Origin: an uncultured Candidatus Bathyarchaeia archaeon
GTDB taxonomy: Archaea; Thermoproteota; Bathyarchaeia; Bathyarchaeales; Bathycorpusculaceae
Reading direction: 5' to 3'
Assembly (NCBI GenBank): GCA_964354015.1
Contig: CAYGYB010000001.1
Span: 1-36,482, forward strand
DNA: 36,482 nt
The position numbers were made by a program, and so were the translations under genes. Positions 7,130-25,777 of this stretch are shown here, one piece after another (the first letter of the stretch is position 1; each line of letters begins with the position of its first letter). The notes under the pieces were generated by a model. It was not told the DNA's origin. It saw nothing but the letters and a program-made list of their open reading frames with translations, and did not search any database.

Positions 7130-7190
7130 GATTTGTCAATAAAGTCTTAGAAGGACTTCTTCTTAAAGTCTATGACAAAATTAAATCGTG

Positions 7191-9502: not shown

Positions 9503-9532
9503 CGCGGGCGGGGAGGGATTTGAACCCCGGCG
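9503..9532 (-). other. tRNA 3' remnant (T arm plus acceptor 3' strand) with no matching 5' half
   Basis: The minus strand reads CCGGGG-TTCAAAT-CCCTC-CCCGCCC-G, a canonical T loop plus a GC-rich acceptor 3' strand. The upstream sequence cannot form anticodon or D arms. Confidence 0.5.
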
Positions 9533-9537
9533 GCAGT

Positions 9538-9577
9538 GGAGATGTCACCCGCAAATCCTTTTTTTCTTTTTAGCTCG
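9538..9577 (+). repeat. copy 1 of a three-copy ~40-nt intergenic motif
   Basis: GGAGATGTCACCCGCAAATCCTTTTTTTCTTTTTAGCTCG. The 16-nt core GGAGATGTCACCCGCA is identical in all three copies and each is followed by a T-run. Confidence 0.75.
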
Positions 9578-9615
9578 TTAGCTGAGTGGCTATTTAGGAA
9601 CACTTTTAATACAAA

Positions 9616-11688
9616 ATGCCGCACTCTTCATTTGGTGTGCCTGTGAAGAAGAGATTTCCACTGTTTTTGTTTTTGTTAGCCTTAGCTATTTGCGGATTTT
9701 ATTTTGGTGGGAGTTTGCTTTTTGGCATCGCCGATGCGGAGACGAATGTCGTGGGCATATTGACTTCTGACACGACTTGGACCAAAGCGAACAGCCCATA
9801 TATCCTAACAGGACCAGTGGCTGTAAACACTGGAGTTACTCTAGCAATTGAACCTGGGGTATCGGTTAACCTGAACAACTTTTACATTCAGGTAAACGGC
9901 ACGTTAATCGCAAATGGCACCAGCAATGACCAAATCACTTTCAAATGGGGACAACTCATATTCACATCTGTCAGTAACGGTTGGAACGAGACAACAGGCT
10001 CAGGCTGCATAATCGAAAACGCAGTCCTCTATTACACTGACCTATCCAGCAGCAATCCCCTAAAAATAAGCAACAGCACCAGCCACAAACCAATTACTGC
10101 TGGCAACTCGTCCGTAATTTCCTTCAACAATATTACTGGAGGCGAAGGTATCTGGGTCATTGCGGGAGAAGCAAGTGTAATTGCAAACAACATGATAGAA
10201 GGTTCTATTGAATGCTCGGGGCATTCAGTCACAGTTACTAACAACACCGTTATAGGTCCATATGGTGAGAATGATGTCGCAATCCGCGAAGTCCGTGTGG
10301 GTGATGGAAGTGTAATTTCAAACAACAACATGACTGGTTTTTTATATTTTGGAAGCTCAACCGTTTCCCACAATATTCTCAAGGGTTTAGTCGATATCTC
10401 GAGCTTAGTCGATGTCTCGGGCTCCACATTCTCCTATAACACTGTTAATGGCACTATAAGTTTACGAGGCGACGCCACGATAGTACACAACACTATTTAT
10501 GGCTTAATCGAAATTAAAGCATATATCCAGAATATTTTGCCCATAGTTTCATACAATATAATTAACGGAAGAGGAAGCACAAACGCGATTTTTATGGAAA
10601 CTGGTCGCGGGCTTTCTATTAACGCCACAATATCTGACAACAATATCTCTGAAGCTACGACAGCGATTTATGCATCTAATTCTGTCATAGCAACAATTGA
10701 GAGTAACACCATCACATCCTGTGGCAATGGCATATCACTTGCAACTTATTTTACTCCGAAGGTAGTAAACAATACTATTGCTTTTAACAACATAGGAATC
10801 AGAGTGGGAGACACATCAACGATATTAAACAATACCATTGCTTTTAACAACATAGGAATCAGGGTGGATAAATCTCCGCAGGATATCTCTTATAATAATT
10901 TTCAAAATAATTCAGGATACAACATCTACCTAGGCGTGGCAGACAACGTAGATGTTAGTAACAATTGGTGGGGAACCACCGACACGCAAGCAATAAACCA
11001 GTCAATATGGGATTTTCACTATGACTTTAATTTGGGCACGGTTAACTTTATCCCGTTTTTGACTGGCCCCAATTCTGCAGCGCCAACAATTCCCACGTTT
11101 AATCTTCTAGCGTCCGCTGGAACTGGGGGTTCCATAAATCCAAGCGGAAGCATCAGCGTACCCTACGGAGGCAACCAAACTTTTGCCATAACAGCAGACA
11201 CAGGCTATAACATAGCTGATGTTTTAGTAGATGGGAGTCCAGTTGGAGCTGTCAGCTCATACACATTTACCAATGTCCAAGATGAACACACAATCTCCGC
11301 AACATTTGCACCAATACCCACTCCAACTCCTTCGCCTTCACCAAGCCCAACGCCTACGCCTAGCCCTACTCCAACACCTACTCCTGAGCCTACGGCATCT
11401 CCATCACCTACGCCCAGCCCAACTCCTTCCCCAACCGCAACACCCACTCCAACGCCTACACCAACACCAACTCCCACACCGACGCCCCAACCAGCCTCAA
11501 CGCCCACCCCTACAGCAACGCCCACCCCCACACCGACGCCCACCCCAACTCTAACCCCAACGCCTACGCCAACTACCACACAAGAACCAGGAGTTCCAAT
11601 AAGTTATGTTTACGTAATTGTCGGGGTCTCGGTTGCCGTAATCGCTACTTTAGCTTTTCTACTGTTAAGAAAACAGAAGACAACATGA
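9616..11688 (+). CDS. surface protein with parallel beta-helix (NosD/PbH1-like) repeats, Pro/Thr/Ser linker and C-terminal TM anchor
   Basis: It has an N-terminal signal/TM and many NNxI/SxNxI beta-helix repeat units (e.g. [13 protein letters not shown] twice). The motif NNWWGTTD is typical of NosD-like domains. A PT/PS linker of about 90 aa precedes the anchor [24 protein letters not shown]. Confidence 0.75.
10768..10868 (+). repeat. tandem duplication with 60-bp period inside the beta-helix gene
   Basis: AACAATACTATTGCTTTTAACAACATAGGAATCAGAGTGGG (10768-10808) recurs at 10828-10868 with 2 mismatches. Confidence 0.85.
11312..11580 (+). repeat. low-complexity CCNACN/CCNTCN repeat encoding the (PT/PS)n linker
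   Basis: The run reads [26 protein letters not shown]...[16 protein letters not shown]. It also creates spurious ORFs in other frames and on the other strand. Confidence 0.85.
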
Positions 11689-11704
11689 AAACTCGCAGTC
11701 AGGC

Positions 11705-11745
11705 GGAGATGTCACCCGCAAACCCTCCTTTTTTCTTTAAGCTGG
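11705..11745 (+). repeat. copy 2 of the three-copy intergenic motif
   Basis: GGAGATGTCACCCGCAAACCCTCCTTTTTTCTTTAAGCTGG. It begins 17 nt after the stop of the 9616-11688 gene. Confidence 0.75.
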
Positions 11746-11778
11746 CTTGTGCATGAGCCTAATGTCGGTTACCCTACG

Positions 11779-12162
11779 TTATCTGTTAAATGTTGGCTGG
11801 AGTATTCCAATTGCAAAGCTTTCGAAGAATCCCCTTGCTCTTGGGTCTGTAATTTTCAAACATCTTACCAAGTAGCCGTCAATTCTCTGAGGGTAGGTGG
11901 GGAACCGTTTCACGATGACGTTTAGGTCAGAGCTAGCATCCATATGCTTGTGGTCGTAAAGCCGACCAACAACGTGTTTTCTAATAGTTTTTCCCACATA
12001 AACTACCTCTCCGTCACCTGGAGTGCTGATAGCGTAGACTCCTTCAACCTCAAACCTTGAAGGCTTTGTAGCAAGTATGTTGCTCAAAGGAATTGGCTCA
12101 CTTGCTAACATGTCAGTTAGCATTCCATGTAACTCAGATATTCTTACGTTGTATTGTTCCAA
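11779..12162 (-). CDS. GIY-YIG domain nuclease (small, stand-alone)
   Basis: GVYAISTPGDGEVVYVGKT fits GIY-x10-YIG. Downstream are R (VGRLYDH), a conserved Glu and Asn (FFESFAIGILQPTFNR). Confidence 0.6.
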   Translation of the reverse strand: MEQYNVRISELHGMLTDMLASEPIPLSNILATKPSRFEVEGVYAISTPGDGEVVYVGKTIRKHVVGRLYDHKHMDASSDLNVIVKRFPTYPQRIDGYLVRCLKITDPRARGFFESFAIGILQPTFNR

Positions 12163-12232
12163 TTAATGACCCCATGATACTATTTTGCTTTTCATTAATA
12201 GATTTTTAACGCGCCCTCTACTCTAAAAAAGT

Positions 12233-12266
12233 GGAGATGTCACCCGCACAATCTCCCCTTTTTTAT
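12233..12266 (+). repeat. copy 3 of the three-copy intergenic motif
   Basis: GGAGATGTCACCCGCACAATCTCCCCTTTTTTAT. In this copy GGAGAT/ATCTCC can form a 6-bp hairpin. It lies between the polB-like stop and the GIY-YIG start. Confidence 0.75.
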
Positions 12267-12284
12267 TATTGTTTCCAGAGAAAA

Positions 12285-14582
12285 TCAATATTCGGTGAGA
12301 CTCTTGTGAACATATCTTCTAACTGAGTCATAGATTGATTTGGTCGTGTATCCAGCAAAACTCAGGAGGTTTGCCGCGGAAGCGTACAGTAAAAACAGGT
12401 ATTTCTTTGTGTCGGCGTTTACGCCTTTTTCTATTAATAGTTCTGCCTTGACTCTTCGTTCGTACCGCTTATTTTCAGAATTTGTGAATAGGAATCTGAT
12501 GTTTTTGCCCGCGTGGACTTCTGCCCCTTCTTTAATTAACTGTTCAGCGGCAATGACTTGGCTGACGTGTTGCTTGTATCGTTTCGGATTTTTTGAGAGG
12601 TGTTTTGTGATTATAAGATCCCAAATGGGTACTTCGCCATCTAGTAGCTTGCGTCTGTATTCCTTCATGATTCCCAAAGCTTCAGGTATTTTTTCGTGCA
12701 ATTCGGTGGAGTTGTTTGCAGAGGCTAATTTCTTTATCATTTCTGTTTGGGCCTCAAATACGAAGCGGGGTGTGTCCCTTCGTCGGATTTCTAGACCTCG
12801 GACTTTGATTTTGCCGTTTTCCATTACGCCGTAGTAACGGTTCAAGACACCGATTCTCGGATGTATTTTGGAGGGTAAAAACACGATCCACTTGTAGCGG
12901 CCTTCAAAGTTTATGGGTACTCCAACTTGTTTGCTTATTGTTTCACACAAAGCGTTGTACTCTTCGACTGTAGCACCTTGCTTTTTTAGCCACAGCGAGT
13001 CAACGATGCCGTGAACCACCTCGAAACCATGCTTTTCCGCTGTGTGCGCTGCTTTCAAGAGTGCTTCTCTTCCGAAGGCGCATACTCCCATGTGACCGTC
13101 AACTGTGCCGAACTTGGCGTTTCTGTAGCCTAAGTAGCCGAAGCAAGTGACTAGAATCCATTTTAAGGCGATTTGGCGCTTGTCATAGATGTTTCTAAGT
13201 TGCTGGTTTTCAGCTTCGTTTTTCATGCGCTTGTAGAATAGGCGTTTGTCAACTACTAATCTGAGGGTTTTGGGTACTATGCCCGTTCGTTTTGTGCAGA
13301 TGTGATAGTTGAGCTCTGGAATGCGCAGGGGTGAGTCTGCGCAGCATTTGCAGAGGACAGTTTCCGCTGAAATGTTGTTGTTAGCCATCAGTATGGGATA
13401 CATAGAGGAAAAGTCTACTTCGCCAACATGGTCATGTGCGCCTACTCGCGGTTCAAAGATGAATCCTCCGCGGTCGCCTACAAGCAGCTCGTATGCGGTT
13501 TTGAAGGCTTCAGGTATGCTCTTGTTTCTCGGGATTAGCACATCGTCTTTTATGGCTTGATAGAACTGGAGCGAGGACATGCTTGAGCCTATGGATGACC
13601 GTGCAGCCGTGTGCAAAGGTACTCTGCATGTGCGGGCTATCTCGATTAAACCGTCGAATCCTGCTTCAGACAGGATAAACGTGTTGTTTTGGTCAACATG
13701 GATTCTCCCGTAAAGTCGGATGGCGCCAGCTCTGTAGAATGTGCGCCCGTACGAGAAGAATGTTCTGCCTGTAGGCGTTTTCGGAGCAAATGGAATATTG
13801 TCTCTGCTGAGGATTAGTTCGTCAAGAACATTGTTCAGGGTTGCTCTTTGAATAAGATAAGGGAAAAGGTATGAGTCGCCGCCTTGGGTTATAATGATGT
13901 CAGGGTCAAGCTCTTTGACGGCTTTGACGAGTTGGAGTAGTTTATCTGTTTCATCACCAGAATCACTGCATATTTCCTTCTGGTCTTGAGTTGCGTTAAT
14001 TGTGCTTATGGGATCTTTGAAGTTGGCGATTTTTCCTTTTTTGGCGATTTCCACTTTAAGCGTCATAACCTGCAGTTTTGGAATCGCGTAGTCTGTGCTG
14101 GCTACTGAGTCAAGAAGCGTGTAGTTTAGCCCTGTCTCTTCGGTCTTGATTTCTACCAGCGCGAGTGGAAATATGTCGTGGCTGAAGAAGTAGACGCGGT
14201 CTCCGTTTAAGTCGCAGTTGTGGACTTCATAGCGCAAGTAATCACCCATTTTCAAGATGCTGCGAGTGAGCGACCGCGTTTTTCTGCAATCCTTCAGCAT
14301 AAGCTCTAAAACTCTGGATTTCTCAGTGTCTGTTGGCTGCGCGTACTTGTAGGCAAAGCTCCAAGAAGCTATTGCTTGGTTCTTGTATAGTCGGCTGACT
14401 AAGCGTTCCAGTTCGTCTTGTTTGGCTGAAACGTAGATTTTGGGTTGGAACTTGTCTGTGAGTTTGATGCGTTCGCCTGTTTCGCTGATTATCCAGACGG
14501 CTATTTCGCCTTCGCCTGCGGGGTAAGCGTCAAGTATCCAGCCTTTAACATGGTCAGGTGCTGCCTGTGTGTTTGTTTGCAT
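12285..14582 (-). CDS. family B DNA polymerase, PolB2-like divergent paralog (exonuclease motifs lost, altered motif C)
   Basis: Pol motif A is present (EVDFSSMYPILM). Motif B is degenerate (KWILVTCFGYLGY versus K-x3-NS-x-YG). Motif C is VVHGIVDSLW instead of Y-G-DTDS. Exo I is TLKVEI instead of FDIET. Exo II is GGDSYLFPYLIQR, with N and FD lost. Confidence 0.8.
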   Translation of the reverse strand: MQTNTQAAPDHVKGWILDAYPAGEGEIAVWIISETGERIKLTDKFQPKIYVSAKQDELERLVSRLYKNQAIASWSFAYKYAQPTDTEKSRVLELMLKDCRKTRSLTRSILKMGDYLRYEVHNCDLNGDRVYFFSHDIFPLALVEIKTEETGLNYTLLDSVASTDYAIPKLQVMTLKVEIAKKGKIANFKDPISTINATQDQKEICSDSGDETDKLLQLVKAVKELDPDIIITQGGDSYLFPYLIQRATLNNVLDELILSRDNIPFAPKTPTGRTFFSYGRTFYRAGAIRLYGRIHVDQNNTFILSEAGFDGLIEIARTCRVPLHTAARSSIGSSMSSLQFYQAIKDDVLIPRNKSIPEAFKTAYELLVGDRGGFIFEPRVGAHDHVGEVDFSSMYPILMANNNISAETVLCKCCADSPLRIPELNYHICTKRTGIVPKTLRLVVDKRLFYKRMKNEAENQQLRNIYDKRQIALKWILVTCFGYLGYRNAKFGTVDGHMGVCAFGREALLKAAHTAEKHGFEVVHGIVDSLWLKKQGATVEEYNALCETISKQVGVPINFEGRYKWIVFLPSKIHPRIGVLNRYYGVMENGKIKVRGLEIRRRDTPRFVFEAQTEMIKKLASANNSTELHEKIPEALGIMKEYRRKLLDGEVPIWDLIITKHLSKNPKRYKQHVSQVIAAEQLIKEGAEVHAGKNIRFLFTNSENKRYERRVKAELLIEKGVNADTKKYLFLLYASAANLLSFAGYTTKSIYDSVRRYVHKSLTEY

Positions 14583-14820
14583 CTAATTCCTTCTGTAGCT
14601 TCTGGAGGCGTATCTGCTGTGAGAGTAGCATGGACATTATCATGGGTTCGAAGAGTATGGGTTGAACAGCATTGCTTCCTGCTGACGCGTAGCTTCGGCA
14701 AGCATCCATCAGCGTTTCGAAGGCTTCTTTGTCTTCGCTGCGTAAGGCTTTGGCGAATCCGTTCCATCTTCGGATTTCGTCTTCTAATGCCATGCGGTAG
14801 GTTTCAACGGTTTTGCCCAT
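14554..14820 (-). CDS. hypothetical 88-aa protein, translationally coupled between the RadA-like and PolB-like genes
   Basis: The ATG lies 4 nt after the upstream stop and the 3' end overlaps the polB-like start by 29 nt. It is predicted helical and I recognise no family. Confidence 0.45.
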   Translation of the reverse strand: MGKTVETYRMALEDEIRRWNGFAKALRSEDKEAFETLMDACRSYASAGSNAVQPILFEPMIMSMLLSQQIRLQKLQKELDANKHTGST

Positions 14821-14824
14821 CTGG

Positions 14825-15544
14825 CTACGTCTCCATGAATGCTGTTAACGGAAGAGTTTCAGAAGGCAATTCAGCAGAGCCCAATGTGAAGATAGGGTGC
14901 TTTTCTAAAATTATTTCTCGCTCGTATTTTGTTTGTTTCAGGGCTATGACTACGTTTGCTCTTCCTGAGGTTAATGCTTGAAGGTAGAGGTTGCGTTGGT
15001 TGTCTGTGTGTGGCGGGTAAGTGGCGACTACTATGACTTGGTGTTCTCGGGCGAAGTTTGATAGGCGAGTGGTGATTTGGCTGTAAATGCGCTTGGCTTC
15101 TTCGTCTTCAACGTCTTTGTCTAGGAACATGGCGGCTATGTCTGAGACTATTACGAGTTTCGCGTTGTATGTTTTGACGGCGTCTTCGAGTTTCTGCAAT
15201 ATCAACGAAGCCATTTGGTAGGCTGTGAATGCTCTGGAAATGTAAATGCGGTCTAGCGCTTGTTTTGGGTCTAGTTGGTGAAGTCGGGCTAAGCGTGTTA
15301 TTTGGTATAGTCTGAAAGTGTTTGCTCCGTCGATGAAGACTACGTTGCTTCCTAAGCCGCCGAGTTGAGGTGGTAACTGTGCTCTTATACAGAGTAGTGA
15401 TGAGAGGGATAGGACGGCGTGTGAGCCGTAGATTAGGGCGAAGTCGCCTGTCGCGAAGCCTGGAAAGAGCTGGTTTATGTTTCGCATGTTTGATGAGAGC
15501 AGAGTTTGAGAGGGAATAGGCTTAACTAACGTGTTTTGAGACAA
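14825..15544 (-). CDS. RadA/RadB (RecA-fold) paralog lacking the Walker A lysine
   Basis: The layout matches RadB: LFPGFATGDFALIYG then SHAVLSLSSLL where G-x-G-K-T is expected. This is followed by VVFIDGANTFR, DRIYISRAF and the Walker-B-like strand KLVIVSDI. Confidence 0.6.
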   Translation of the reverse strand: MSQNTLVKPIPSQTLLSSNMRNINQLFPGFATGDFALIYGSHAVLSLSSLLCIRAQLPPQLGGLGSNVVFIDGANTFRLYQITRLARLHQLDPKQALDRIYISRAFTAYQMASLILQKLEDAVKTYNAKLVIVSDIAAMFLDKDVEDEEAKRIYSQITTRLSNFAREHQVIVVATYPPHTDNQRNLYLQALTSGRANVVIALKQTKYEREIILEKHPIFTLGSAELPSETLPLTAFMET

Positions 15545-15660
15545 TTTCTCCCACTTCTCCCAATTTATTGAGGGATTAATAGAGTGCCGTTTTAGCTGTT
15601 TTAAAGCTGTTTCTGGAACGACTTTCCAGCGCAGGTGGGAGAGTACAGTAAAAGTGAAGT

Positions 15661-15765
15661 GTTGGGATTAAATTTTAATCCAACCAACCAACCAACCCAA
15701 CGACTGATACTGGGAAAAGACAGGACAGAGCAGGACAGTATACAGGATTCAGGGCATACAGGCTA
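15661..15765. repeat. intergenic repeat cluster: perfect palindrome, (CAAC)n microsatellite and reiterated CAGGACAG motifs
   Basis: GGATTAAA-T-TTTAATCC lies at 15665-15681 and CCAACCAACCAACCAACCCAAC at 15680-15701. The stretch GACAGGACAGAGCAGGACAGTATACAGGATTCAGGGCATACAGG lies at 15720-15763. Confidence 0.7.
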
Positions 15766-15855
15766 TGAATGAAGATGAGAAGACAGGGTAGTAGTAAAAA
15801 TCAAGTCATGCCTATTGATGGTGGTTTGAATCATGAATTGGGTGTCCTCAGTAGC

Positions 15856-16479
15856 TCAAGGGATAGCTGTTCCCATCGCAATAGTCTTTAGCTGAGCCAC
15901 AGCTTTCTTGAGTAAATCCACATCAACTGTTGGCGTTCTATTAACATATTGTCCGTCCATTGTAAAATCTGAGTAAAAAACCGCTTGTCTTGTCTCGCAA
16001 TCTGCAATCTCATCTGTATCAAATGCCTGCGGGTCAAAGGCAGACCTATCGAATGCGCCTTCATGGAGAGTAATGCATTCTTTTGGAAGTGTCTGTATTG
16101 CTTTTTCAAACTTAGCAGTATGGCTTCGGAAGCCGTTTTTGTATTGTATCCTGACCATTCCAGATGTAGGAGTACAGTCTTTTAACAACAGAAGCTTTCC
16201 ATATTCCTCTACAGCGAACATGTAAAGTCCCGAACAAATTGAAGCATCCCCACCATTATTCAGAAGTTTCTCCACTGAATCTATCAGGGCATTTACTCCG
16301 TTAAGTGTCTCCTGCATCATTGTTCTCCATAAGGCTTCGCTGATTTCTAACTCTTCTTTCCATTTACCTCTTGCATCCTTAAGCATTCTTAAACCCTCAC
16401 ACTTTGTACTCACAATCGGGGTAATACCCACAGCTTCTGCACTTCCGAACATTGTTATGCTGGTCTGGCTCAATGACAC
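15856..16479 (-). CDS. AbiV-like (abortive infection family) protein, tentative
   Basis: NALIDSVEKLLNNGGDASICSGLYMFAVEEYGKLLLL, then RSHTAKF and RQAVFYSDF, resemble the AbiV pattern of helix-EE-x-GK, H-x-x-K and R-x-x-x-Y-x-D. This call is from memory of the family only. Confidence 0.4.
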   Translation of the reverse strand: MSLSQTSITMFGSAEAVGITPIVSTKCEGLRMLKDARGKWKEELEISEALWRTMMQETLNGVNALIDSVEKLLNNGGDASICSGLYMFAVEEYGKLLLLKDCTPTSGMVRIQYKNGFRSHTAKFEKAIQTLPKECITLHEGAFDRSAFDPQAFDTDEIADCETRQAVFYSDFTMDGQYVNRTPTVDVDLLKKAVAQLKTIAMGTAIP

Positions 16480-16548
16480 CCAAACTAATCAATGCGAACT
16501 TGCTTAACTTGTCATTGCGACTGCGGCTTTTCTAAAAAGCACGGTATT

Positions 16549-18081
16549 TCATTCTGGCTCGAATATAGACTTGCCCTGTTTGTTTAGCTTTTTCAAACGG
16601 TCATCCATGTTTTTTAGTGCGTTGGAGTCTGGAAGCCCGTAGTCTTCTTTTTCTCTCTCGGCTAAATATTGTGGGTAGTGAATGACTTTTATTGGCACGG
16701 CAAATCGTATTTTGGGTTCTGATATGAGCAAGGCTTCACCTATGTCCAGCATCTTTATTTCTGTATCGCTGTATTCCATGTAAGGCGTATTGTCTGTCAA
16801 GTATTTTCTGTCGTTTTTCAGTTCTGTTTTCATTATTACTTTTGTCCACAATTCGGCGAAAACATCAAAGTCGATTCTGGAGGGTCGAGGAGTAACAGCA
16901 TTTAATCCGACTCGATATTTACGGTATGTCAAAGCTATGTCCGAGAAGATAGTTCGAGGTTTGGCTGGGTCAAGAAACTCATGCGCTTCTTCCAACGTTA
17001 TCAGCAGGGTCGGAAGCTTCTGCCATTCTTCATACTTCTCTTCCCACATGTGCTTGTATTTCTCAGCAACGGTGGAAGCTATCATACATACGATTCGTTT
17101 TTGGTCCTCATCGCGAAGTCCCGATATGTCAATTAAGCATGTTATTCCTTCACATATGTTCTGTGAGATATTATCGATAACACTGTAGTCAGATGGGGGA
17201 AAGAGGTCCTCTGGGAGAGAGGACAGCTTTTGCATAAGCGCTCCAACTGCTTCTTTATGTCCTTTTGTTTCGAATTTTCCTCCTGCTTCAAAAGTTTTCA
17301 GAGCCTCCTCTATCCACCTATTTCCATGTGCTTTGTAGAGAGACCGTGCAAGTCGCCTTTGTGGAAGGGATACATCAGAGAAAAGAGTTGCAAGCTTTTC
17401 AGGTTTGATTGTGTACAAACCAACCATTAGCTTCTTGTCTCTTGCAGAATAGTACCTAACCTTTGTGTGGAATAAGGGATGGTCTTTCAAACCGCATTGA
17501 GGTTTGATTTCTTTTCCTTCAAAAAGCTGACCTGCAAAATCAAATATTAACGCAACCGTCTTCGGGCTGTTGTCAATTAATTGAGCGTTCAAAATCAGTT
17601 CTGTATTTGTCTTTCCAGACCCTGTCATCCCAAACATGCCCATCATGCGGGGAAGAGAGTCAATGTCTATCCCCACTAAACCTAACAGTTGCTTTCCAGA
17701 ACGCATCAGCCCAAGATTCATATCGCCTGCAAGTTTGAGAATCGAATGGTCTTCTTCGCCAGTTGCAAAGACTTGGTCATTGTAATTCGGGTTGAATGTC
17801 GGTGATCGTACTCGATTATCTGTCCTCTCCAAAAACAGTACTGCTTCAACGCTCCTGAAACAGGAGTATGGACCAAAGACCTCCTTACCTTCTGCCTGTC
17901 TTAGTTGTTCAGTAGTTTGCAGTGTTGAACTGCTTTCTGCATTGACAACTCTTGCATAAAAGATGCTTTCAACAGAGTCAATACGGACAATTTGCCCAAA
18001 AGAAATTCGGGCTGTTTTGTCCAAAAAGAATTTTACAGTGTCGCTCTTTGTTCCACAAACAAATCCAATAGATTTAGACAT
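16549..18081 (-). CDS. HerA-like (DUF87 / FtsK-HerA superfamily) ATPase
   Basis: It has an N-terminal HAS-barrel-like segment (IGFVCGTKSDTVKFFL...FGQIVRID...FYARVV). Walker A is GMFGMTGSGKTN and Walker B is LLITLEEAHEFL. At about 510 aa it matches archaeal HerA in size. Confidence 0.8.
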   Translation of the reverse strand: MSKSIGFVCGTKSDTVKFFLDKTARISFGQIVRIDSVESIFYARVVNAESSSTLQTTEQLRQAEGKEVFGPYSCFRSVEAVLFLERTDNRVRSPTFNPNYNDQVFATGEEDHSILKLAGDMNLGLMRSGKQLLGLVGIDIDSLPRMMGMFGMTGSGKTNTELILNAQLIDNSPKTVALIFDFAGQLFEGKEIKPQCGLKDHPLFHTKVRYYSARDKKLMVGLYTIKPEKLATLFSDVSLPQRRLARSLYKAHGNRWIEEALKTFEAGGKFETKGHKEAVGALMQKLSSLPEDLFPPSDYSVIDNISQNICEGITCLIDISGLRDEDQKRIVCMIASTVAEKYKHMWEEKYEEWQKLPTLLITLEEAHEFLDPAKPRTIFSDIALTYRKYRVGLNAVTPRPSRIDFDVFAELWTKVIMKTELKNDRKYLTDNTPYMEYSDTEIKMLDIGEALLISEPKIRFAVPIKVIHYPQYLAEREKEDYGLPDSNALKNMDDRLKKLNKQGKSIFEPE

Positions 18082-19108
18082 AATCTCCTATTCCTTCTCT
18101 TCTAAACGCATATTGAACTCCATGAAGTTCATCCGCAAAACTACAAGATTGCTCCTCCAAACGCAGCATTTTCGATAACCCTGCCTCTCTCAGTCTGTCC
18201 TCAACAATGTCGTAATAATGAAGAAGTGCAGTGTCTGAAGGACCCGAGAACTCATGCGCAAGGTATAGAGGAACTGGGTATCCCAAACAACGAGCATCTC
18301 CTGAAACCGCAGTCAATGGCGACAGAATTTCCGCTACGTTTCGACCTTTCAAATACTCCATTACGTCACATCGAAACACGCGTTGACTTCCTTCGAATAA
18401 TTTGACTAACGATATGTCCCCAAAGAGATGTTTCCCCCTATCAGCAGTTCTAACGGGATGATAAGTCCAGATGTCGTAAGGCGAAAGCAAACTTGCGTTT
18501 GCTATAAAGTCTCTGCCTTTTTCATCGTGAAGAAGCGGCGAGTTCTTGCTCAATGCCAAGAGGACTATCCCCATTTTCTCGCACTTTTCATACAAGGATA
18601 GTCTAAAATTTCTTCTACCACCAAAATAACCTGCGCCGTCAAGCAACACGTAGTTGGTTGCATTTTCTTCTTCATTACAGTTGGTGTCTCCTGATTTTAG
18701 AAGTTTCAAAGCGAGCTCGCTTTCCAGTTCGATTCTGTAATCTGTAAGGAAATTGCCTCGCGTTTTTGTGTCTCCAACTGCTGTGAACAGCCTCTCCTCA
18801 TAGTTCCATTCCACCTCTCGTTCTTTAACAAAGACATGGGCTGTCCGCATAAGGTAGACACCCCAGTTGTTTGCTCTTTTGAGCGTCCTTGTCGAGCAAT
18901 CAACAGCGACAAAGGTTCCGCAAAAGTTGTCGATTCTTTTCAAGGGTCTGATATGCGAGGCTTCAGGCTTAATGGATATTATATGCTCTTCCAAGAAATC
19001 ATTCGAATCGTAGGCAATTCCATTTTGTGTATAGTATTTAAGCTTCTTTTCCATATCAGCAAGACCATTATCGGCAATTGAGTTCATCATTGAAGGCGCC
19101 TTTCTCAT
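18074..19108 (-). CDS. NurA-like nuclease (RNase H-fold 5'-3' exo/endonuclease family)
   Basis: FVAVDCST corresponds to the NurA AVDGS motif, YVLLDGAGYFGG to the second Asp motif, and LGYPVPLYLAHEFSG to the YP-x-x-L-x-x-AH motif. Its 3' end overlaps the herA-like start by 8 nt. Confidence 0.6.
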   Translation of the reverse strand: MRKAPSMMNSIADNGLADMEKKLKYYTQNGIAYDSNDFLEEHIISIKPEASHIRPLKRIDNFCGTFVAVDCSTRTLKRANNWGVYLMRTAHVFVKEREVEWNYEERLFTAVGDTKTRGNFLTDYRIELESELALKLLKSGDTNCNEEENATNYVLLDGAGYFGGRRNFRLSLYEKCEKMGIVLLALSKNSPLLHDEKGRDFIANASLLSPYDIWTYHPVRTADRGKHLFGDISLVKLFEGSQRVFRCDVMEYLKGRNVAEILSPLTAVSGDARCLGYPVPLYLAHEFSGPSDTALLHYYDIVEDRLREAGLSKMLRLEEQSCSFADELHGVQYAFRREGIGDYV

Positions 19109-19223
19109 TAATTATGGGACTGAATTCTATTAAGATATGCGCCATTGCAAATATAAGACAACTGTGGCAACGACTTCTCCAATCTGTGGAGAGGTGAGTT
19201 AAAATAACAAGCGCGCGCTTTGA

Positions 19224-20636
19224 TCAAATTTTAGTTGGAATATCTTCCATAAGTCTTGGTTCGACTTTTTCTTTTACAGCAAGATGTAATAAATCGGTGA
19301 TCTCGTTTTTTTGTTTTCTCATCTGATTTATCTCAGCCATAGCTTGATCTACGATTTGAAGCTGGTCTTCCTTTTTTTCGGGTGGCTTGGGGATCTTCAA
19401 GTTGCGAACTTTGGCAAGACCAAGCTTTTGTTGTCTTAGTTCACTCATTTCTTTTTGAATCTGAATTTGCACAATTGACGAATTAAGCAAGCAAAACAGA
19501 TATTTCGGCTCCACTGAATCCTTAGGAGAAAGTACAGCTAAATTCTCTGTTAAGTTGCTGGTTCCAAGCCCTTCAGGAATAATTGCCACTTTGCCCACGG
19601 TTCCAGCTATAGCCATGACAATCTCGTTTTCAAAGACTTGATATCTCTCGATCGAAGCGTGTTGTTTTTCAGAGATATATCTGATGGCTCTTGTATTGAC
19701 TTCTCCATCTACAATGTCTGTATTCCGCAAATATTTGTATTTAGTGACCCCAGACGAATATCCGCTACCCTTCTTCAAGCGCCTCCCTCCGCGCACGGTA
19801 GCCAAAGAAGACAAAGAGACCCATTCAGGAATAGCATCTTGCATTTCCTTTATTTTTGTCGTTAACATGTTTTGTCTAAAACCAACTCTCATCAATCGGT
19901 TAGAACCTATTTGACTAAACGAAGTTTGGAAGCGGCTAACAACACCTCTTGGAACGGTTAATCCAAATACTCTGAAGAAGGTGTCATCGCATATTTGGGA
20001 AATTGGACGAATTGATTTGGTGATGGTCGTAATCCTTCCGTCAATCTCTAATAAATCAGCGGTAATGTTTTCCTGAGTTTCGATTGATGGAATTGGAAGC
20101 TTTAGCTGTAACAATTCTTCTATTGGCAAACGCGCTTGTATTTTTCCAGATTTCAGCAATCCTAAAGAAGTCAGAACCTTCGGATTAAGCAGGAGATATT
20201 TAAAGAATGGGGCAGTTACTTTTTCGCTATTAAGTTTTAGTGGAATCCATTCTGTTGAACCTATCCATAACTTTTCCTTTCTGTTGATCAGTATTTTTCC
20301 CAGTTCTGGCTCAATCTTGGCGATGAGAATGTCGGCGTCTGCAAAATCCAATTTGTTTGACCCTACTTCTATCACGGTTTTTTCGGATAGAAGCGCCGAT
20401 GTCTTCGACTTGACGTCTTCAAGCTCTATGAGAACACGTGCCGTATCAAGAGTTCCCTTTTTTATTATTGTTTTTTTCAGGGAGAAAATAAGGTCGATCA
20501 CTCTTGTTGGCTTCAGAGTGCTGTTAAGAAAAATGACAGAGTCCAATTCATCTACAAAATATCTGTATCTGGCACCAAGCCTACGGCTCGACCTAAGACC
20601 CAGATTGGAAAAGGATGTGACAAACGAGAATACCAA
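19224..20636 (-). CDS. restriction-modification specificity subunit (HsdS/BcgIB-like, two target-recognition domains)
   Basis: Two TRD-like halves are each followed by the conserved helical spacer (LPIPSIETQENITADLLEIDGRI and KIPKPPEKKEDQLQIVDQAMAEINQM). The start lies 3 nt after the methyltransferase stop; the track start is a TTG. Confidence 0.8.
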   Translation of the reverse strand: MVFSFVTSFSNLGLRSSRRLGARYRYFVDELDSVIFLNSTLKPTRVIDLIFSLKKTIIKKGTLDTARVLIELEDVKSKTSALLSEKTVIEVGSNKLDFADADILIAKIEPELGKILINRKEKLWIGSTEWIPLKLNSEKVTAPFFKYLLLNPKVLTSLGLLKSGKIQARLPIEELLQLKLPIPSIETQENITADLLEIDGRITTITKSIRPISQICDDTFFRVFGLTVPRGVVSRFQTSFSQIGSNRLMRVGFRQNMLTTKIKEMQDAIPEWVSLSSLATVRGGRRLKKGSGYSSGVTKYKYLRNTDIVDGEVNTRAIRYISEKQHASIERYQVFENEIVMAIAGTVGKVAIIPEGLGTSNLTENLAVLSPKDSVEPKYLFCLLNSSIVQIQIQKEMSELRQQKLGLAKVRNLKIPKPPEKKEDQLQIVDQAMAEINQMRKQKNEITDLLHLAVKEKVEPRLMEDIPTKI

Positions 20637-20639
20637 AAT

Positions 20640-22967
20640 TTAACAGTCCCACGGTTTTAATGCCAAAAAACTATCAAGGATATTTGGAATCGAGTCAGTT
20701 CCATTTTTGGCGGCGCTCAGGGAAGTTGCAAAGAGCTCATTTGGTCTATGCAGTTCGCCTTGCTTTTTGCTTCGCTTGTACCCGATTTCATCTGCGTGCG
20801 CCATGAATATCTTATAATCGAGCCTTCGGCTTACTTTACTGAAAACCCACCAGTCAATATTCTTCAGAAGTTCAGATAAAATATCTTCATACGTTTCTTT
20901 AATGGCGTTGGCGTCAAGATTTGCCGCATCAGCTTCCGTCATGAATTCCGACAAAAAAGTTAAGAAGATTTTCTTGTCCGAATCATCGAGAGGCACCTGT
21001 CCAGTGAGAACAATTCTTTCAATCTCACTTCGAAGTTTGCGATACTCTTTTGTTTCTTCTCTCCAAATGCGATCATATTCTTTAACCTCCTCTCTCGTTT
21101 TCTTTCTTGCAATTAGTAGACTCGTCTTGGTAGGCGTAAAAGGCTTGAAAGCAAGGAACGGAAGAGAGATTATAGCTTTGATTTCGAAATGTCTATAGAG
21201 GAACTTTCGAATGTAGAGGTTGTCTTCAGTATCAAGCACGCTGTCAGGCAATACAACTCCTAAGCGACCGTTTTCGCGGAGTAATTGGAACCAGCGCTCT
21301 ATGAACAGATTTTCAGAATTTTGGTTATCAGCAAACATAAATCTATCATTTAGCCCCTTCTTAGTTTCGGGATCGAGTGTAACGCTGAATGGAGGATTTG
21401 AAACCACCAGATCAAACTGCTCATTTACAGGTTTATCATATATCTGAGTCTCATAGTTGCCAGATTTTGACAAAGCACTAATACGATCTTGCAACTGATA
21501 GTTTTCAAATTCGAGAAGACCGTCTTTTTGGAAGATGTTTAGGTTTCCATCCCCGTGCAAAACCATGTTAACTTTGGTTGTCAGTGCTAAATCAGGGTTT
21601 GGTTCTATTCCATAAACATACTCTCTTGCCCATATATTCTCCTTAATTGCGGGGGACCAACTCGCAATAAGCTCGCGTATTCGCTTTGATCCGCGTATTT
21701 TTGCGAAATTGTCTTCTTTAATAGTTCTCGTTACGAGTTTCATGCATTCTATTAGGAAGGTACCAGAGCCAGCTGAAGGATCGCATATGAAAGGCAAGCG
21801 GGTTTGGTCGTTAATCTCTTTCGCCACAAGATTTGGGAGACCTACAGCAAGGAGTATGAAACGCACAATGTTTGTGTGGGTAAGGAATTGACCCCTTGTT
21901 TGGGTGAATTCTTTACTTATTATGTTTTCAAAAAATTCGCCCAGTAAATCGCCTTCTTCCTTATGTTTGTTTTCAACGAGTGAAAATCCTTGAAGTCGGT
22001 CTACAACATAAGCAATTTTGTAGTCTGGAATTATGTCTTTGTCTATCCCTGTCGAGTTTTTGATAACATCAGCAGGAATCCCGAGGTATTTTCTTCGCGC
22101 GTCATTATATAGAGTATTTACCTTGTCGTATATTTCGTCAAGAGGTTGTGGAATACCATCTTTGTATTCAATCTGAAAGCGGTAAGATTCACCGTCTGCA
22201 CACTCGTTTTCGTCGTAAACTTTGGCAAAAAACAGTTTTACCAAGTTGATGAAAATTTGGTTATATGCCATTCCTCCACCGCCCCAGAGGGTTTCGTGCA
22301 GCTCTACTCTCAGGACTCGGAAGTCTTCTCTTTCAAGCGAAGTATCAAGGTCGCTTACTCCCTTAACATAAAGAGTTTTAGTTGCAATTCCGTATTCGAC
22401 AGGAAGGCGATTCAGGCTTGGAGATCCGTTTTTTTCCCAATTTTCAAAGTCCTTAAAACGTTCATTGTCGATAAGGAGTGTTTTGTCTTGAATCCTGCCA
22501 TTAGATAATTCTGAGGTGCAATAAACTAAATATTTTACTGGCGCTTCCTGCTTTGCCATATCAAATAGCTGTCCCTTAATCATTGAACGGTGCTCTTCAA
22601 ATTTCTCGGGTGGCTTAATTTCAACAAAAAGATAGGTTGAAGCAATGTTTGGTTTCCTTTTGTCTCTAACTATTAAATCAATTCTGCCTTTTGCCTCTTT
22701 AGGTCTCCCTATGCAGTACTCTTTTTCCATTTCTATCGATGAAACAGGATACTTCAGCTCCTTAACTAAACGGACTGTGAGGTAAGCGCGAACATATTCC
22801 TCATCTATTAACGATGATATTGCCCTGTGAAGAACAATCTTCGAAGAATTATACTCTATTTTACCTCCTTGAAAATCACTGTTAGGAACAAGTTTGGAAA
22901 CTATCTCTCCTGAAGGGTCATTGTCCTGAATGTACTTGACAATTGCCTTCTTCAAATTAATGTTCAT
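20640..22967 (-). CDS. fused PD-(D/E)xK endonuclease / gamma-class N6-adenine DNA methyltransferase (Type IIB BcgIA-like or Type IIG-like)
   Basis: The N-terminal HSDR_N-like nuclease motif is GRIDLIV...YLFVEIKPP (D...E-x-K). Methyltransferase motif I is FICDPSAGSGTFLIE and motif IV is VVSNPPFSV. Confidence 0.85.
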   Translation of the reverse strand: MNINLKKAIVKYIQDNDPSGEIVSKLVPNSDFQGGKIEYNSSKIVLHRAISSLIDEEYVRAYLTVRLVKELKYPVSSIEMEKEYCIGRPKEAKGRIDLIVRDKRKPNIASTYLFVEIKPPEKFEEHRSMIKGQLFDMAKQEAPVKYLVYCTSELSNGRIQDKTLLIDNERFKDFENWEKNGSPSLNRLPVEYGIATKTLYVKGVSDLDTSLEREDFRVLRVELHETLWGGGGMAYNQIFINLVKLFFAKVYDENECADGESYRFQIEYKDGIPQPLDEIYDKVNTLYNDARRKYLGIPADVIKNSTGIDKDIIPDYKIAYVVDRLQGFSLVENKHKEEGDLLGEFFENIISKEFTQTRGQFLTHTNIVRFILLAVGLPNLVAKEINDQTRLPFICDPSAGSGTFLIECMKLVTRTIKEDNFAKIRGSKRIRELIASWSPAIKENIWAREYVYGIEPNPDLALTTKVNMVLHGDGNLNIFQKDGLLEFENYQLQDRISALSKSGNYETQIYDKPVNEQFDLVVSNPPFSVTLDPETKKGLNDRFMFADNQNSENLFIERWFQLLRENGRLGVVLPDSVLDTEDNLYIRKFLYRHFEIKAIISLPFLAFKPFTPTKTSLLIARKKTREEVKEYDRIWREETKEYRKLRSEIERIVLTGQVPLDDSDKKIFLTFLSEFMTEADAANLDANAIKETYEDILSELLKNIDWWVFSKVSRRLDYKIFMAHADEIGYKRSKKQGELHRPNELFATSLSAAKNGTDSIPNILDSFLALKPWDC

Positions 22968-23457
22968 GCCTAATTCTCACGTCCGAGATTCACGCTCTAT
23001 CGTCAAAGAGTTCAATTGAATATGGCATCTGACGTTAATATTACTTTTCCAAATAGTGGGTGTTCATTTCAATGAAATTCATGTGAACCCCAAATCGACC
23101 GAAGACTTGACCGAAGGTTATCAATGGACTTAAGAAGCGAGTTTGCCATTATTTGCACATTGGCTATTCGGTATTTGAAAAGAATAGCCAAAGCCACTGC
23201 TCTTCAACTTTCTTTGGTGGACGTTGTGAGTGTTCTTAGAAACTGGAAAAGAAAGGAATTTTTGATAGAGTAAGATCCGTAAATTCATCACCAAAAGGTG
23301 AGTCCATCCTCTTAAGAAAGGAAGAAAGTTAAATATTGGTCACAAAATCTCTCGCATAACTGTTTGCTTCCTTTTCCTCCACCCTAACAAGAAGGTCTAA
23401 ACTGTTAGAATCAACCAAATGGTGATATAATTCATGGAGTATTATGCGTTTGGTTAA

Positions 23458-23658
23458 CCCTCTCTTAGTAAAGTAAGCCCGCTAACCGGATTCTTAGCGT
23501 TTACGTTGATGCTGAACGAAAGCCTTGAAGACACAGAGAACCTGCCAGCCCCTGAAGTCTTAGCTGCAGAAATCGCAGAAAACCTGCAATCAGCACTCGA
23601 GCAGTTCAATAGCATGCGCGAAGAGTTGGACGAAGACAAGAGCCAAGAGCGCGCGTGA
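23458..23658 (+). pseudogene. relic of the C-terminus of a type I R-M HsdM subunit
   Basis: The open frame ends ...ESLEDTENLPAPEVLAAEIAENLQSALEQFNSMREELDED*. It closely resembles the C-terminal tail of EcoKI-type HsdM (SLPEPDVLAAEAMGELVQAL...). No methyltransferase domain lies upstream. A 15-codon stub follows where hsdS would start. Confidence 0.45.
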
Positions 23659-24368
23659 GCTTATCATGATGAAAGAGCCTTTAGTGAGTAATTCGCAGCG
23701 CCGCGATGATTAAGCGTCTCCAACTCTGACTAAAATGCGCGTTACCACGCACGCAGAAGCTTGCTTGCGCGTAAATAGATCTGCGCGAACAGCGTCAACA
23801 GAGCTTAATTCAAGTTGTGTGCAGATAGACCTGCACACAAAGCACAACAGCACAAGGGGCTTAGCTGTGAACAAACCACGTTACTACGTACATACGCTTC
23901 TTGAAGCGCTGCACAAGGGAACTTTGCTACTTTATGCACTCAAAGAATCAGCGTCCTTTTTTGAATCAGAGCATTCGTTATGAGACTTGTGGGTCACTGG
24001 TTTGGAGCTTTAGTCGTTCTCTAAGTTAAGTGCGGTGATTAGTGCTATCGCGTGGCGAGCAAGTCTTGCAAACTTTGCTCCCAGAATATGCGGGTAGGGT
24101 TGCACAGGGAAGCGAGGGAACATGGTGCTTAGTGCTTCCTTTGCTCATCGCGTTCAGAGCTTGTTTCACGTTTTGTCTGAGAGGTTCCTATTTCTGTCTC
24201 TTTCGTAAATGTACTTAAATTACAAACTGAATCTACTTGTTCTGGAAGTATAAGATTTATAGACCTCTCAGACAAATTGCGTTTTAAGCTCTGATTACTG
24301 TTCCCTTTGTTTTTGCGCCGATTGGTTAGCAAGAGCATTAAACGCGTTACGCGCTTTGCAAAAAAAAA

Positions 24369-25583
24369 TTAGTCACGCTTTACGATGGCGCGTCCGTCTT
24401 GCAGCGTATGAATAAGCGTCCAGCCCTCGTTAAGATAGTTCAATAGTTCGTTCTCTGCAATCTGCTTGAATTCTTCTCCGCAGTGTCTTCCGTTAGTGCA
24501 TTCAGGATTTACATGTTTTTTATCTCTAAGCAACATCCATCGCCGTCTAAGTTGTTGCTGCTCAGCTTCCAACTGTGCCAAGCGTTCGGACACCTCTTTC
24601 GGCACTTGCTTCTTATCAGCCGTAAACTCTAAAAGCGGCACGGCTTCGGCAAACTTTGCGCGTAACTGATCAATAGCGGGTTGGCTGTACGGTGCTTCCT
24701 CGCCCTTAACTTTGCGTCCTCTGATTTTGCGCGCCCAGTTTGGAACCATACCAATCTCCTCAAGCGCCGTGTTCACGTAGCGCCTCGCATCATGCAAGCT
24801 AAACTGCACGCCTGCTCCCTTACTTAAACGCCAGATTAGCTTGCCATACTCCTCGTAAGCCAGCGGTTTAAAAGGCGCGCGGGTTTCAAGCCACACGTTA
24901 TCCTCAGCAGTTAAAGTTCGCCCAAGTTTCTGCTCAATCCACTCTTTGTAAAGTTTTAAGTCTCTAACTGCTTCCGGCGTTAAGAAAGTTATCTGCTGAA
25001 CGCCCTTGTAGCGTCCGCGTCCGTGCCCTTTCAAAATCTCTGACGGAAGGTTTATGCACGGTAAATCCGCTTGTTCCCAATCGTCTTGAATGTGCTTCCA
25101 TTTAAGTTGCGACAGCGTTTCCTTGGCGATAGCGGTTGAGTTGACGAAAGTGATAAGCGCTTTATCTCGCAAGTTCGACGACCAACTCCACAGTTTACGT
25201 AGGTTTTGCTTAGAGGGCTTATTGTACGGCTTAACTTTCTCAAGTTGAACAACTCCGCACGCTCTGGCTAAGTCGCAGTAGTTATGCTTAAAAAAACTCT
25301 TAACTGCTGTTGTAACGCGGAACTTAACGGAATTCTTGAAGCCTGCTTTGTTCTCAGCAACAAAATCGTCTAATAGCGCCTCAGCTTCTTTGCTTGCTGG
25401 GTTACTTTTAAGCGCCAGCAGCTCCGTTGGTGACTTTCCGCTCCACTGGCAGAAGCGGTAAAGGTCAAAAGCGTTTAGCTGCTTCTCCTGAATGCGCGTA
25501 AGCCAGCGCTTAACCTCATCGTAGCGTTCAGCCCACGCTTCAAGCACGTTATTCTTTTTAATCTCGCTCATTTTAGCTTTCAC
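24369..25583 (-). CDS. tyrosine recombinase / integrase
   Basis: The catalytic-domain pattern is ...ETRAP..., FSLHDARRYVNT (H-x-x-R), NWARKIRGRK, then APYSQP as a candidate nucleophile Tyr. The N-terminal SAM-like domain fits. It lies at the edge of the accessory segment. Confidence 0.75.
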   Translation of the reverse strand: MKAKMSEIKKNNVLEAWAERYDEVKRWLTRIQEKQLNAFDLYRFCQWSGKSPTELLALKSNPASKEAEALLDDFVAENKAGFKNSVKFRVTTAVKSFFKHNYCDLARACGVVQLEKVKPYNKPSKQNLRKLWSWSSNLRDKALITFVNSTAIAKETLSQLKWKHIQDDWEQADLPCINLPSEILKGHGRGRYKGVQQITFLTPEAVRDLKLYKEWIEQKLGRTLTAEDNVWLETRAPFKPLAYEEYGKLIWRLSKGAGVQFSLHDARRYVNTALEEIGMVPNWARKIRGRKVKGEEAPYSQPAIDQLRAKFAEAVPLLEFTADKKQVPKEVSERLAQLEAEQQQLRRRWMLLRDKKHVNPECTNGRHCGEEFKQIAENELLNYLNEGWTLIHTLQDGRAIVKRD

Positions 25584-25777
25584 CTCCGTATTCTTTTACC
25601 ATGTAACAAAAGGCTCTGCCCTTTATAAATATCTCCTTGTAGGACTACAGTTACATATAACCCTTCTCTTGTGCAGCATTAATACCTGTGAACTTACCGA
25701 GATTCTTGCTTATTTGCCATTTCCAAATATTACATAGATTACACTTTAGTCTATATGGCGCCTATCGTTTCCCAGAA

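Follow-up and report, generated by a model that had tools for sequence, protein, structure and literature searches.

A NurA-HerA gene pair as probable mobile cargo on a strain-specific island of a Bathyarchaeia archaeon

A stretch of 36,482 nucleotides from an uncultured Bathyarchaeia archaeon (contig CAYGYB010000001.1; the whole stretch is termed the window below) carries two minus-strand genes, nurA (18074-19108) and herA (16549-18081), between a restriction-modification (R-M) module and a gene of the AbiV family. Neither mre11 nor rad50 is present in the window, and the pair thus lies outside the canonical herA-mre11-rad50-nurA operon. The locus raises the question of whether a repair machine has merely settled among defence genes, or whether it was recruited as a defence effector, as a first-pass annotation made from the sequence had proposed. 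On the evidence described here, the pair is likely to be an accessory version of the end-processing machine NurA-HerA of Bathyarchaeia, one that moves horizontally and is here carried as cargo on a strain-specific island.

The NurA and HerA proteins of the window

The two open reading frames (ORFs), of 344 and 510 amino acids (aa), overlap by 8 nucleotides (nt), as read in the first-pass annotation. Its description of the larger product as a HerA-type P-loop ATPase also held: the protein scores 47.4 bits with the Pfam HerA central domain (DUF87/HerA, PF01935; cut-off 23.2), among PDB sequences it matches the HerA of S. solfataricus best (4d2i, E = 3e-17), and both the Walker A motif GMTGSGKT (residues 151-158) and the LEEAHEF segment (E364, E365) are invariant among 110 family members. 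The gene is accordingly listed as a hexameric translocase ATPase. Against the NCBIfam models of HerA in double-strand-break (DSB) repair, the protein scored 70.9 bits with NF040937 (cut-off 800) and 39 with NF040819 (cut-off 970), and it is a member of the family rather than an equivalog of the characterised DSB-repair HerA. The HerA_antiphage models of the same collection gave 19.7-20.7 bits (cut-offs 800-850), so that by profile score the protein stands far closer to the repair-type models (about 71 bits) than to the anti-phage ones (about 20 bits). Its second-best NCBIfam match was the DNA-translocating ATPase CedD.

The 344-aa protein, taken alone, gave no significant match in Pfam, PADLOC or NCBIfam. 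The Pfam NurA family PF09376 scored 15.5 bits (E = 0.013), under its cut-off of 21, and PADLOC returned no match even at E = 10. More than 1,000 homologues are on record, and PF09376 is matched by 35 of 44 close homologues (identity at least 56%), with a best E-value of 7.9e-8. In the family profile, the segment GYPVPLYLAH pairs with GYPFPLLKAH of the S. solfataricus NurA (2ygk). A Foldseek search with an AlphaFold model, a check suggested earlier, retrieved NurA structures as all ten of its best PDB matches (2ygk, 3tal, 9x1l and 7f6d among them), the first being 2ygk (E = 7.6e-6, probability 1.0); the RNase-H-like NurA fold is thus recognised on a model of pLDDT 56 and TM ~0.35. D70 is invariant in a 44-sequence alignment, as are E129, D157 and H285 throughout the alignment of 110 family sequences. 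D70, E129 and D157 were assigned as catalytic positions by motif position and not by structure superposition, and the segment around H285 pairs with the KAH segment of the S. solfataricus protein. Taken together, the homologues, the profile alignment and the Foldseek matches to a modest model identify the protein as a predicted NurA, in agreement with the first-pass annotation. One detail of that annotation did not survive: the AVDCS ("DCS") motif, regarded as atypical, is invariant family-wide and hence not atypical for this family. The alignment of upstream regions indicates that the true nurA start is probably a conserved ATGATG at 19090, which would give a protein of 338 aa.

The genes nurA and herA were kept together in 88 of the 91 loci examined, the remainder being on short or truncated contigs.

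Core pairs and the mobile sub-clade

The SerRS encoded in the window is 84-100% identical to Bathyarchaeia SerRS proteins, which identifies the host as a Bathyarchaeon and rules out a methanogen host with horizontal transfer from Bathyarchaeia. When the NurA family alignment was compared with species-representative genomes, 80 loci were obtained, all but two of them labelled Bathyarchaeia or Bathyarchaeota; the two exceptions, labelled as bacteria, are probably mis-binned. The pair of these genomes, termed the core pair here, has a conserved neighbourhood. Its immediate flanks are a gene for a 145-aa protein upstream and a divergent TrmB-like gene downstream, followed further upstream by Cdc6/Orc1 and the PolD small subunit (DP1), and further downstream by a CN-hydrolase, NAD synthase, Elf1, PcrB and the PolD large subunit (DP2). 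Single neighbours were found in 42 to 78 of about 81 core-type genome loci (the 145-aa gene in 78, the TrmB-like gene in 75, cdc6 in 72 and PolD DP1 in 65). All metagenome loci outside the sub-clade described below that had enough flanking sequence show the same core neighbourhood. The fixed position in a replication-origin cluster (cdc6/orc1, PolD DP1 and DP2) hints at a replication-linked role, possibly with extra partners. The arrangement is found, for example, at L005:9506-13300 (GCA_038873195.1) and in some 80 further loci, and its 145-aa upstream gene is winged-helix-like. No description of a Bathyarchaeia origin-linked NurA-HerA locus was found in the literature searched.

Neither mre11 nor rad50 is among the conserved neighbours of the core pair, which renders their absence from the window uninformative. 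The first-pass annotation was correct in noting this absence, but its use as a sign of a special role falls away, since the core pair is likewise without them.

The window pair groups with about 20 metagenome loci, in which NurA is 74-88% identical to that of the window. This sub-clade comprises the window and loci L001-4, L086-91, L095-102, L140 and L143. In a neighbour-joining tree of concatenated NurA and HerA, rooted at the midpoint, it is monophyletic, branches from inside the core tree and has the longest internal stem (0.108); its sister loci are core-type. Between the window pair and the core Bathyarchaeia pairs the concatenated proteins are 57-69% identical; relative to the origin-linked pair of L005, the identity is 72% for HerA and about 60% for NurA. 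No member of the sub-clade was detected in the scan of species-representative genomes, in which the best NurA identity was 62%.

Core neighbours were found beside the pair at none of the sub-clade loci. Instead, the sub-clade pairs occupy at least nine unrelated contexts: the island of the window; an integrase with an AAA_16 ATPase and a helix-turn-helix (HTH) protein; HTH_45 and dodecin/PadR genes; an acetyltransferase; transglutaminase and HTH genes; a CBS gene; a NOV_C gene; a small methyltransferase and a lipocalin; and carboxylase/mutase genes. An R-M system or AbiV adjoins no other pair of the sub-clade, an integrase occurs in just one other context, and linkage to PolB or RadB recurs at none; the neighbours are mostly metabolic or of no known role. 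The comparison of neighbourhoods proposed in the first-pass annotation thus gave a divided outcome, in that the pairs are not syntenic and occupy many sites, but show no recurrent linkage to R-M, Abi or integrase genes. A mobile NurA-HerA cassette of this kind was not found described in the literature searched.

Within the sub-clade, dN/dS was 0.11-0.17 for NurA and 0.05-0.11 for HerA, values that point to strong purifying selection under which the genes are maintained. Core-conserved positions have been switched at only 3 of 95 sites in NurA and 3 of 218 in HerA (6 of 313 in total), all conservatively, and the catalytic and Walker residues are intact. So small a number of switched positions gives no hint that the proteins have acquired a new function. 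One member departs from this state: in L001 (11010-11411), where the locus consists of the integrase, AAA_16 ATPase, HTH and NurA genes, herA encodes no more than an N-terminal fragment of 133 aa. About 5 kb downstream of this fragment is a solo cas1 gene.

A viral origin was also considered and rejected. No relatives of the sub-clade were found in IMG/VR, where NurA, HerA and the integrase of the window were all without matches; a single relative of the PolB of the window lies on a contig labelled "viral", which has no other genes in common with the window.

The limits of the mobile unit can be traced from the alignments. Homology among the sub-clade loci starts about 35-100 nt upstream of nurA and stops about 25 nt after the herA stop codon. 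On the upstream side, a conserved block with a TATA-like element and a GAAAGG motif (19109-19206, minus strand) is alignable over about 95 nt in the window, L095, L096 and L001, beyond which the DNA is unrelated; the TTAATAGAA / TTTATAGAAATC element within it is conserved across the sub-clade. On the downstream side, a T5 tract follows the herA stop (16534-16538, minus strand), and GTGCTTTTT is retained at this position in most sub-clade loci. With its shared homology bounded by block and tract, the mobile unit has the appearance of a self-contained transcription unit, about 2.7 kb long, in which the block is the putative promoter and ribosome-binding site and the tract a putative archaeal terminator that forms the downstream end of the cassette. 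A scan with sigma-70 promoter and hairpin terminator models, which are not applicable to archaea, remained at background level.

In many sub-clade loci, (GC)4 tracts lie 21-110 nt outside the cassette ends (179 nt in L001), for example at 19211-19218 in the window and in the flanks of L087, L091, L100, L001 and L095. Their density is 0.48 per kb in the sub-clade contigs versus 0.15 per kb in other loci. As candidate recombination sites they were set aside, being common in other intergenic DNA of the same contigs and hence of doubtful specificity.

The island and its gene content

The cassette resides on a strain-specific insertion of 17,508 bp (8145-25652). The insertion is bordered by an 8-bp repeat, ACATATAA, which is present exactly twice in the window, once at the left junction (8137-8144; attL or target duplication) and once at the right (25653-25660; attR). 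The empty site is represented by two JGI contigs, L149 and L150 (empty-site strain, JGI 3300056594 / 3300056618), with 99.4-99.9% identity to both flanks: in these, cofD lies beside phoU_div with a single ACATATAA, and homology to the window stops at 8144. The insertion is also missing from the relatives L092-L094, where cofD is directly beside phoU_div. Just inside the right end, with its start about 70 nt from attR, is a gene for a tyrosine integrase (24369-25583, minus strand), which matches Pfam Phage_integrase at 25.5 bits (E = 1.3e-5), slightly under the cut-off of 27.1, and an NCBIfam XerA-type model at 2.7e-5. The empty site, the repeat and the integrase establish the segment 8145-25652 as a genomic island, integrated site-specifically between cofD and phoU_div.

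The GC content is 0.38-0.43 over 15.5-23.5 kb, compared with 0.45-0.50 in the flanks, and this profile, together with the integrase, bears out the A/T-richer, integrase-bounded stretch noted earlier. Within the island as a whole the GC content is uneven (0.38-0.48). From the integrase end, the gene order begins with a 1.4-kb stretch of small ORFs, the R-M pair, the NurA-HerA cassette and AbiV, and continues with a RadB-like ATPase, a DUF8156 protein, a family-B polymerase and a weak GIY-YIG-like ORF. The island is completed by a surface protein with NosD repeats and a Pro/Thr linker, and by a 256-aa protein without assigned family.

The R-M module consists of two minus-strand genes. The first encodes a fused nuclease-methyltransferase of 775 aa (20640-22967), a type IIG/IIB-like subunit with Pfam matches to N6_Mtase (4.5e-26), Eco57I (3.6e-14) and, in a nuclease-like N-terminal region, HSDR_N_2 (6e-8). 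A D...EIK nuclease motif is located in the same N-terminus, PADLOC assigns the protein to REase_MTase_IIG (3e-40), and the best NCBIfam match is MADS2, at 181 bits against a cut-off of 720. The second encodes a 470-aa HsdS-like specificity (S) subunit (19224-20636), which matches Pfam Methylase_S in two stretches (1e-19), the PADLOC models mad5 and Specificity_I, and NCBIfam MADS5 at 51 bits against a cut-off of 400. Together, the two proteins form a self-sufficient type IIG/IIB-like R-M module. As the first-pass annotation had stated, it lies 115 nt upstream of nurA (gap 19109-19223). The AbiV-like gene reported there on the other side of the pair (15856-16479, minus strand) was likewise confirmed as an AbiV-family HEPN protein that clears both curated cut-offs (Pfam HEPN_AbiV, 27.9 versus 27.1; TIGR04498, 34 versus 27); it is a neighbour outside the cassette.

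The PADLOC comparison proposed for these genes yielded matches to the R-M proteins and a best match of HerA to mad8, but NurA went unmatched, and the mad8 match is generic, as mad8 and HerA are matched equally by the housekeeping HerA of L005. Membership in a MADS system, prompted by PADLOC matches to mad8, mad5 and mad2, was rejected: MADS2 and MADS5 are far sub-threshold, most components are missing and mad8 is uninformative. NCBIfam MADS models did not match HerA or NurA, and no kinase gene was found. The lack of an R-M system beside the other sub-clade pairs, the regulatory edges of the cassette itself and the generic mad8 match all speak against both an obligatory tie to the R-M genes and membership in MADS. 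The pair does not appear to be a subunit of the neighbouring R-M system, and its sequence does not distinguish it from the core pair.

Beyond AbiV, three minus-strand genes encode the RadB-like ATPase (14825-15544; Pfam Rad51), the 88-aa DUF8156 protein (14554-14820) and the family-B DNA polymerase (12285-14582; Pfam DNA_pol_B). The DNA of this trio (12229-15690) is 84% identical to a non-island chromosomal trio in L147 (L147:9039-12298), the proteins are 86-93% identical between the two, and the PolB homologues form a smooth gradient, as expected of a core gene. On account of this core-like trio and the GC heterogeneity, the island is recorded as a mosaic. An alternative in which PolB and RadB are native flank, the island ending at about 15.7 kb, was rejected, as there is no second att-like repeat and the empty-site contigs show the whole of 8145-25652 to be inserted. 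The trio is conserved in Bathyarchaeia; its RadB-like protein has a degenerate Walker A region, and motif C of PolB reads HGIVDS instead of YGDTDS, and the polymerase may be catalytically altered.

Several further features of the window were recorded. The 690-aa NosD/beta-helix-repeat protein (9616-11688, plus strand) is secreted, with a C-terminal membrane anchor and a long linker rich in Pro and Thr, and its gene contains an 11-copy imperfect repeat. The 1.4-kb stretch between the R-M module and the integrase (22968-24368) contains only ORFs of 61-82 aa without family matches, together with a 32-nt imperfect inverted repeat (24154-24185 / 24263-24294), and may be regulatory or code for an excisionase. 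An intergenic repeat, GGAGATGTCACCCGCAAA with a T-rich tail, occurs at 9538-9572, 11705-11739 and 12233-12267, as well as in L147 and L148; following several genes, it might act as a shared terminator or represent a REP-like element. Outside the island, an intron-containing tRNA (6077-6220, minus strand) was detected by Rfam (48.6 bits) and missed by ARAGORN. An integrase fragment in L092 adjoins the same tRNA, which is therefore probably a second integration hotspot. The adjacent segment of about 970 bp (6224-7192) contains a 203-aa ORF that resembles homing endonucleases of the LAGLIDADG type and is overlapped by an HTH ORF. It is missing from L149, although L149 is 99.7% identical over the adjacent phoU_div segment, and thus constitutes a second strain-specific insertion, located between the tRNA and phoU_div.

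Mechanism, alternative explanations and significance

The cryo-EM structures and biochemistry of the S. solfataricus and T. kodakarensis HerA-NurA complexes underlie the mechanism that can be proposed for the island pair by analogy. The two-gene cassette of about 2.7 kb, with its promoter-like block, its putative T-tract terminator and an overlap that would couple translation of nurA and herA, would supply both components. A HerA hexamer would load at free ends of double-stranded DNA and, driven by ATP, push the duplex into a NurA dimer, which would separate and cut the strands, so that linear DNA would be resected or destroyed from its ends. T. kodakarensis HerA-NurA degrades both strands exonucleolytically from the ends (PMC12977600). 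The benefit to the island would most plausibly be extra capacity for processing double-strand ends. It may extend to defence, through degradation of invader DNA cut by the adjacent R-M enzyme, a RecBCD-like role after restriction.

Could the pair instead be a dedicated anti-virus or anti-plasmid system, either a stand-alone effector acting on linear DNA or a component of an R-M-coupled, MADS-like system guided by methylation? We regard this as possible, though not as the probable explanation. The pair lies between a complete R-M module and AbiV, in the low-GC block of an integrated island; one other sub-clade context contains the integrase, AAA_16 ATPase and HTH protein, and another a NOV_C nuclease-like domain with a weak AbiEi match. 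The sporadic, strain-specific distribution is typical of defence genes, and bacteria have proven anti-phage systems that pair HerA with an effector (PMC11291478, PMC11472057). A possible antiviral HerA-NurA is argued for in the T. kodakarensis study, which cites nurA-csm6-herA clusters beside CRISPR arrays (PMC12977600), and the top profile matches are PADLOC mad8 for HerA, PADLOC mad5 for the S subunit and NCBIfam MADS2 for the methyltransferase. Against this, none of the other sub-clade pairs adjoins R-M or AbiV genes, the cassette is bounded by a promoter-like block and a putative terminator of its own, and the mad8 and HerA matches in PADLOC are shared by the housekeeping HerA of L005. MADS2 and MADS5 stay far under their cut-offs, the kinase and other MADS genes are absent, the anti-phage HerA models reach only about 20 bits compared with about 71 for the repair type, NurA has no PADLOC match at E = 10, and no residue signature splits the sub-clade from the core pair. 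The proposal of recruitment for defence therefore stands in part: the pair is accessory and mobile, located on a strain-specific island and found at many sites, but its R-M/Abi linkage does not recur and no signature of new function is apparent. That the antiviral or defence idea for archaeal HerA-NurA has already been published, as a hypothesis (PMC12977600), and that the association occurs in this one island, make a defence role of the island pair plausible, if not probable. A still bolder form, in which a free-moving NurA-HerA would be a stand-alone immune effector, the archaeal counterpart of RecBCD-type destruction of linear DNA, spreading on islands with R-M and Abi genes, can be offered only tentatively.

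The main alternative to defence is support of repair or replication, of the host or of the element, in view of the co-resident PolB and RadB-like genes. In one version, the pair would belong to a DNA-metabolism module of the mobile element and serve, with PolB, the RadB-like ATPase and the GIY-YIG-like protein, in replication, recombination or transfer, for example by making single-stranded DNA (ssDNA). The genes are co-oriented on one insertion that includes PolB and an ATPase of the Rad51 fold; the hypothesis that archaeal (Ced/Ted) DNA transfer uses ssDNA made by NurA-HerA was put forward by Beltran et al. (2023; PMC9905601), and CedD is the second-best NCBIfam match of HerA. We nevertheless consider this version improbable, as the other sub-clade pairs are without PolB or RadB linkage, the trio has a counterpart of 84% DNA identity outside any island in a relative, PolB shows a core-like gradient of homologues, the island has no pilus, type IV secretion system or Ced/Ted genes, and viral contigs (IMG/VR) yielded no relatives. 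It is more improbable again, indeed very unlikely, that the pair is an ordinary housekeeping pair, the only NurA-HerA of the organism, active in double-strand-break repair and near R-M genes by chance. Its identity to core pairs (57-69%, with HerA at 72% to L005) is within the range found among core pairs, the conserved catalytic and Walker residues are retained, and on the one contig analysed no second copy was demonstrated. The contigs that are 99.4-99.9% identical to the flanks nevertheless lack the entire 17.5-kb segment, and such empty-site strains make it unlikely that this is the only housekeeping copy. Moreover, the pair is away from the cdc6/PolD locus, which holds at least 72 of about 81 core-type genome loci, and its closest relatives are found in many unrelated contexts, one of them decaying.

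The preferred interpretation, a mobile accessory copy of the core machine, has several points to its disadvantage. A single contig of the genome was analysed, and a core, cdc6-linked second copy was not demonstrated; the AlphaFold model of NurA is of low confidence (pLDDT 56, TM ~0.35). Most sub-clade contigs are short (2-12 kb) with poorly annotated neighbours, so that an association with defence genes could be under-detected. Finally, in view of the core-like trio on the island, the insertion may be a transferred chromosomal mosaic, in which the pair would serve repair or replication of the element.

In comparison with known systems, the island pair resembles most closely the NurA-HerA of S. 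solfataricus (2ygk/4d2i) and T. kodakarensis (9x1l-9x1p), in which two proteins are encoded in the same order by overlapping genes, NurA is RNase-H-like with D/E/D/H residues and HerA has Walker A and B motifs. The mechanism would be expected to be the same, with a hexameric translocase that feeds a dimeric nuclease. The NurA of the window is only about 15% identical to the solved NurA proteins, and the pair is a strain-specific island copy rather than part of the essential chromosomal operon with mre11 and rad50. It shares with the core Bathyarchaeia locus (L005) the family, the invariant residues including DCS and the lack of mre11-rad50 neighbours; unlike that locus, its sub-clade has lost all origin-cluster neighbours and moves between sites. 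Sir2-HerA and HerA-DUF4297 similarly combine a HerA-family hexameric ATPase with an adjacent effector gene in defence islands (PMC11291478, PMC11472057), but the effector in the window is NurA, and the ATPase falls outside the anti-phage HerA group. For the methyltransferase and S subunit, the nearest named relatives are MAD2 and MAD5 (best or near-best matches) of the MADS system of P. aeruginosa (bioRxiv 10.1101/2023.03.30.534895). MADS has eight genes including a kinase, whereas the window has weak, sub-threshold matches to two or three components, and a NurA-HerA cassette occurs beside such methyltransferases nowhere else. RecBCD and AddAB, ATP-driven, end-loading helicase-nucleases that destroy restricted linear DNA, are functional analogues only: the proteins are unrelated, and a corresponding role in the window would be by analogy. 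We know of no Chi-like control for HerA-NurA. The RecBCD analogy was drawn earlier for the Sulfolobus HerA-NurA, as cited in PMC12977600.

Whether archaeal NurA-HerA serves in vivo in end resection for recombination or in destruction of foreign DNA is debated, and the structural work on the T. kodakarensis complex, from 2026, favours destruction (PMC12977600). In this context, the Bathyarchaeia provide a natural contrast, in which a core pair locked to the replication-origin cluster can be set against a related, selectively maintained accessory pair on an island with R-M and AbiV genes. If the free-moving pair indeed acted by itself as an immune effector, natural genomes would for the first time offer a case that backs the recently proposed antiviral role of archaeal HerA-NurA. 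If the mobile copy protects, a housekeeping repair machine would have been recruited for immunity without visible change in its sequence, and the compact cassette would lend itself to work in heterologous hosts. If it gives no protection, it would be a clear example of repair genes that travel on archaeal islands.

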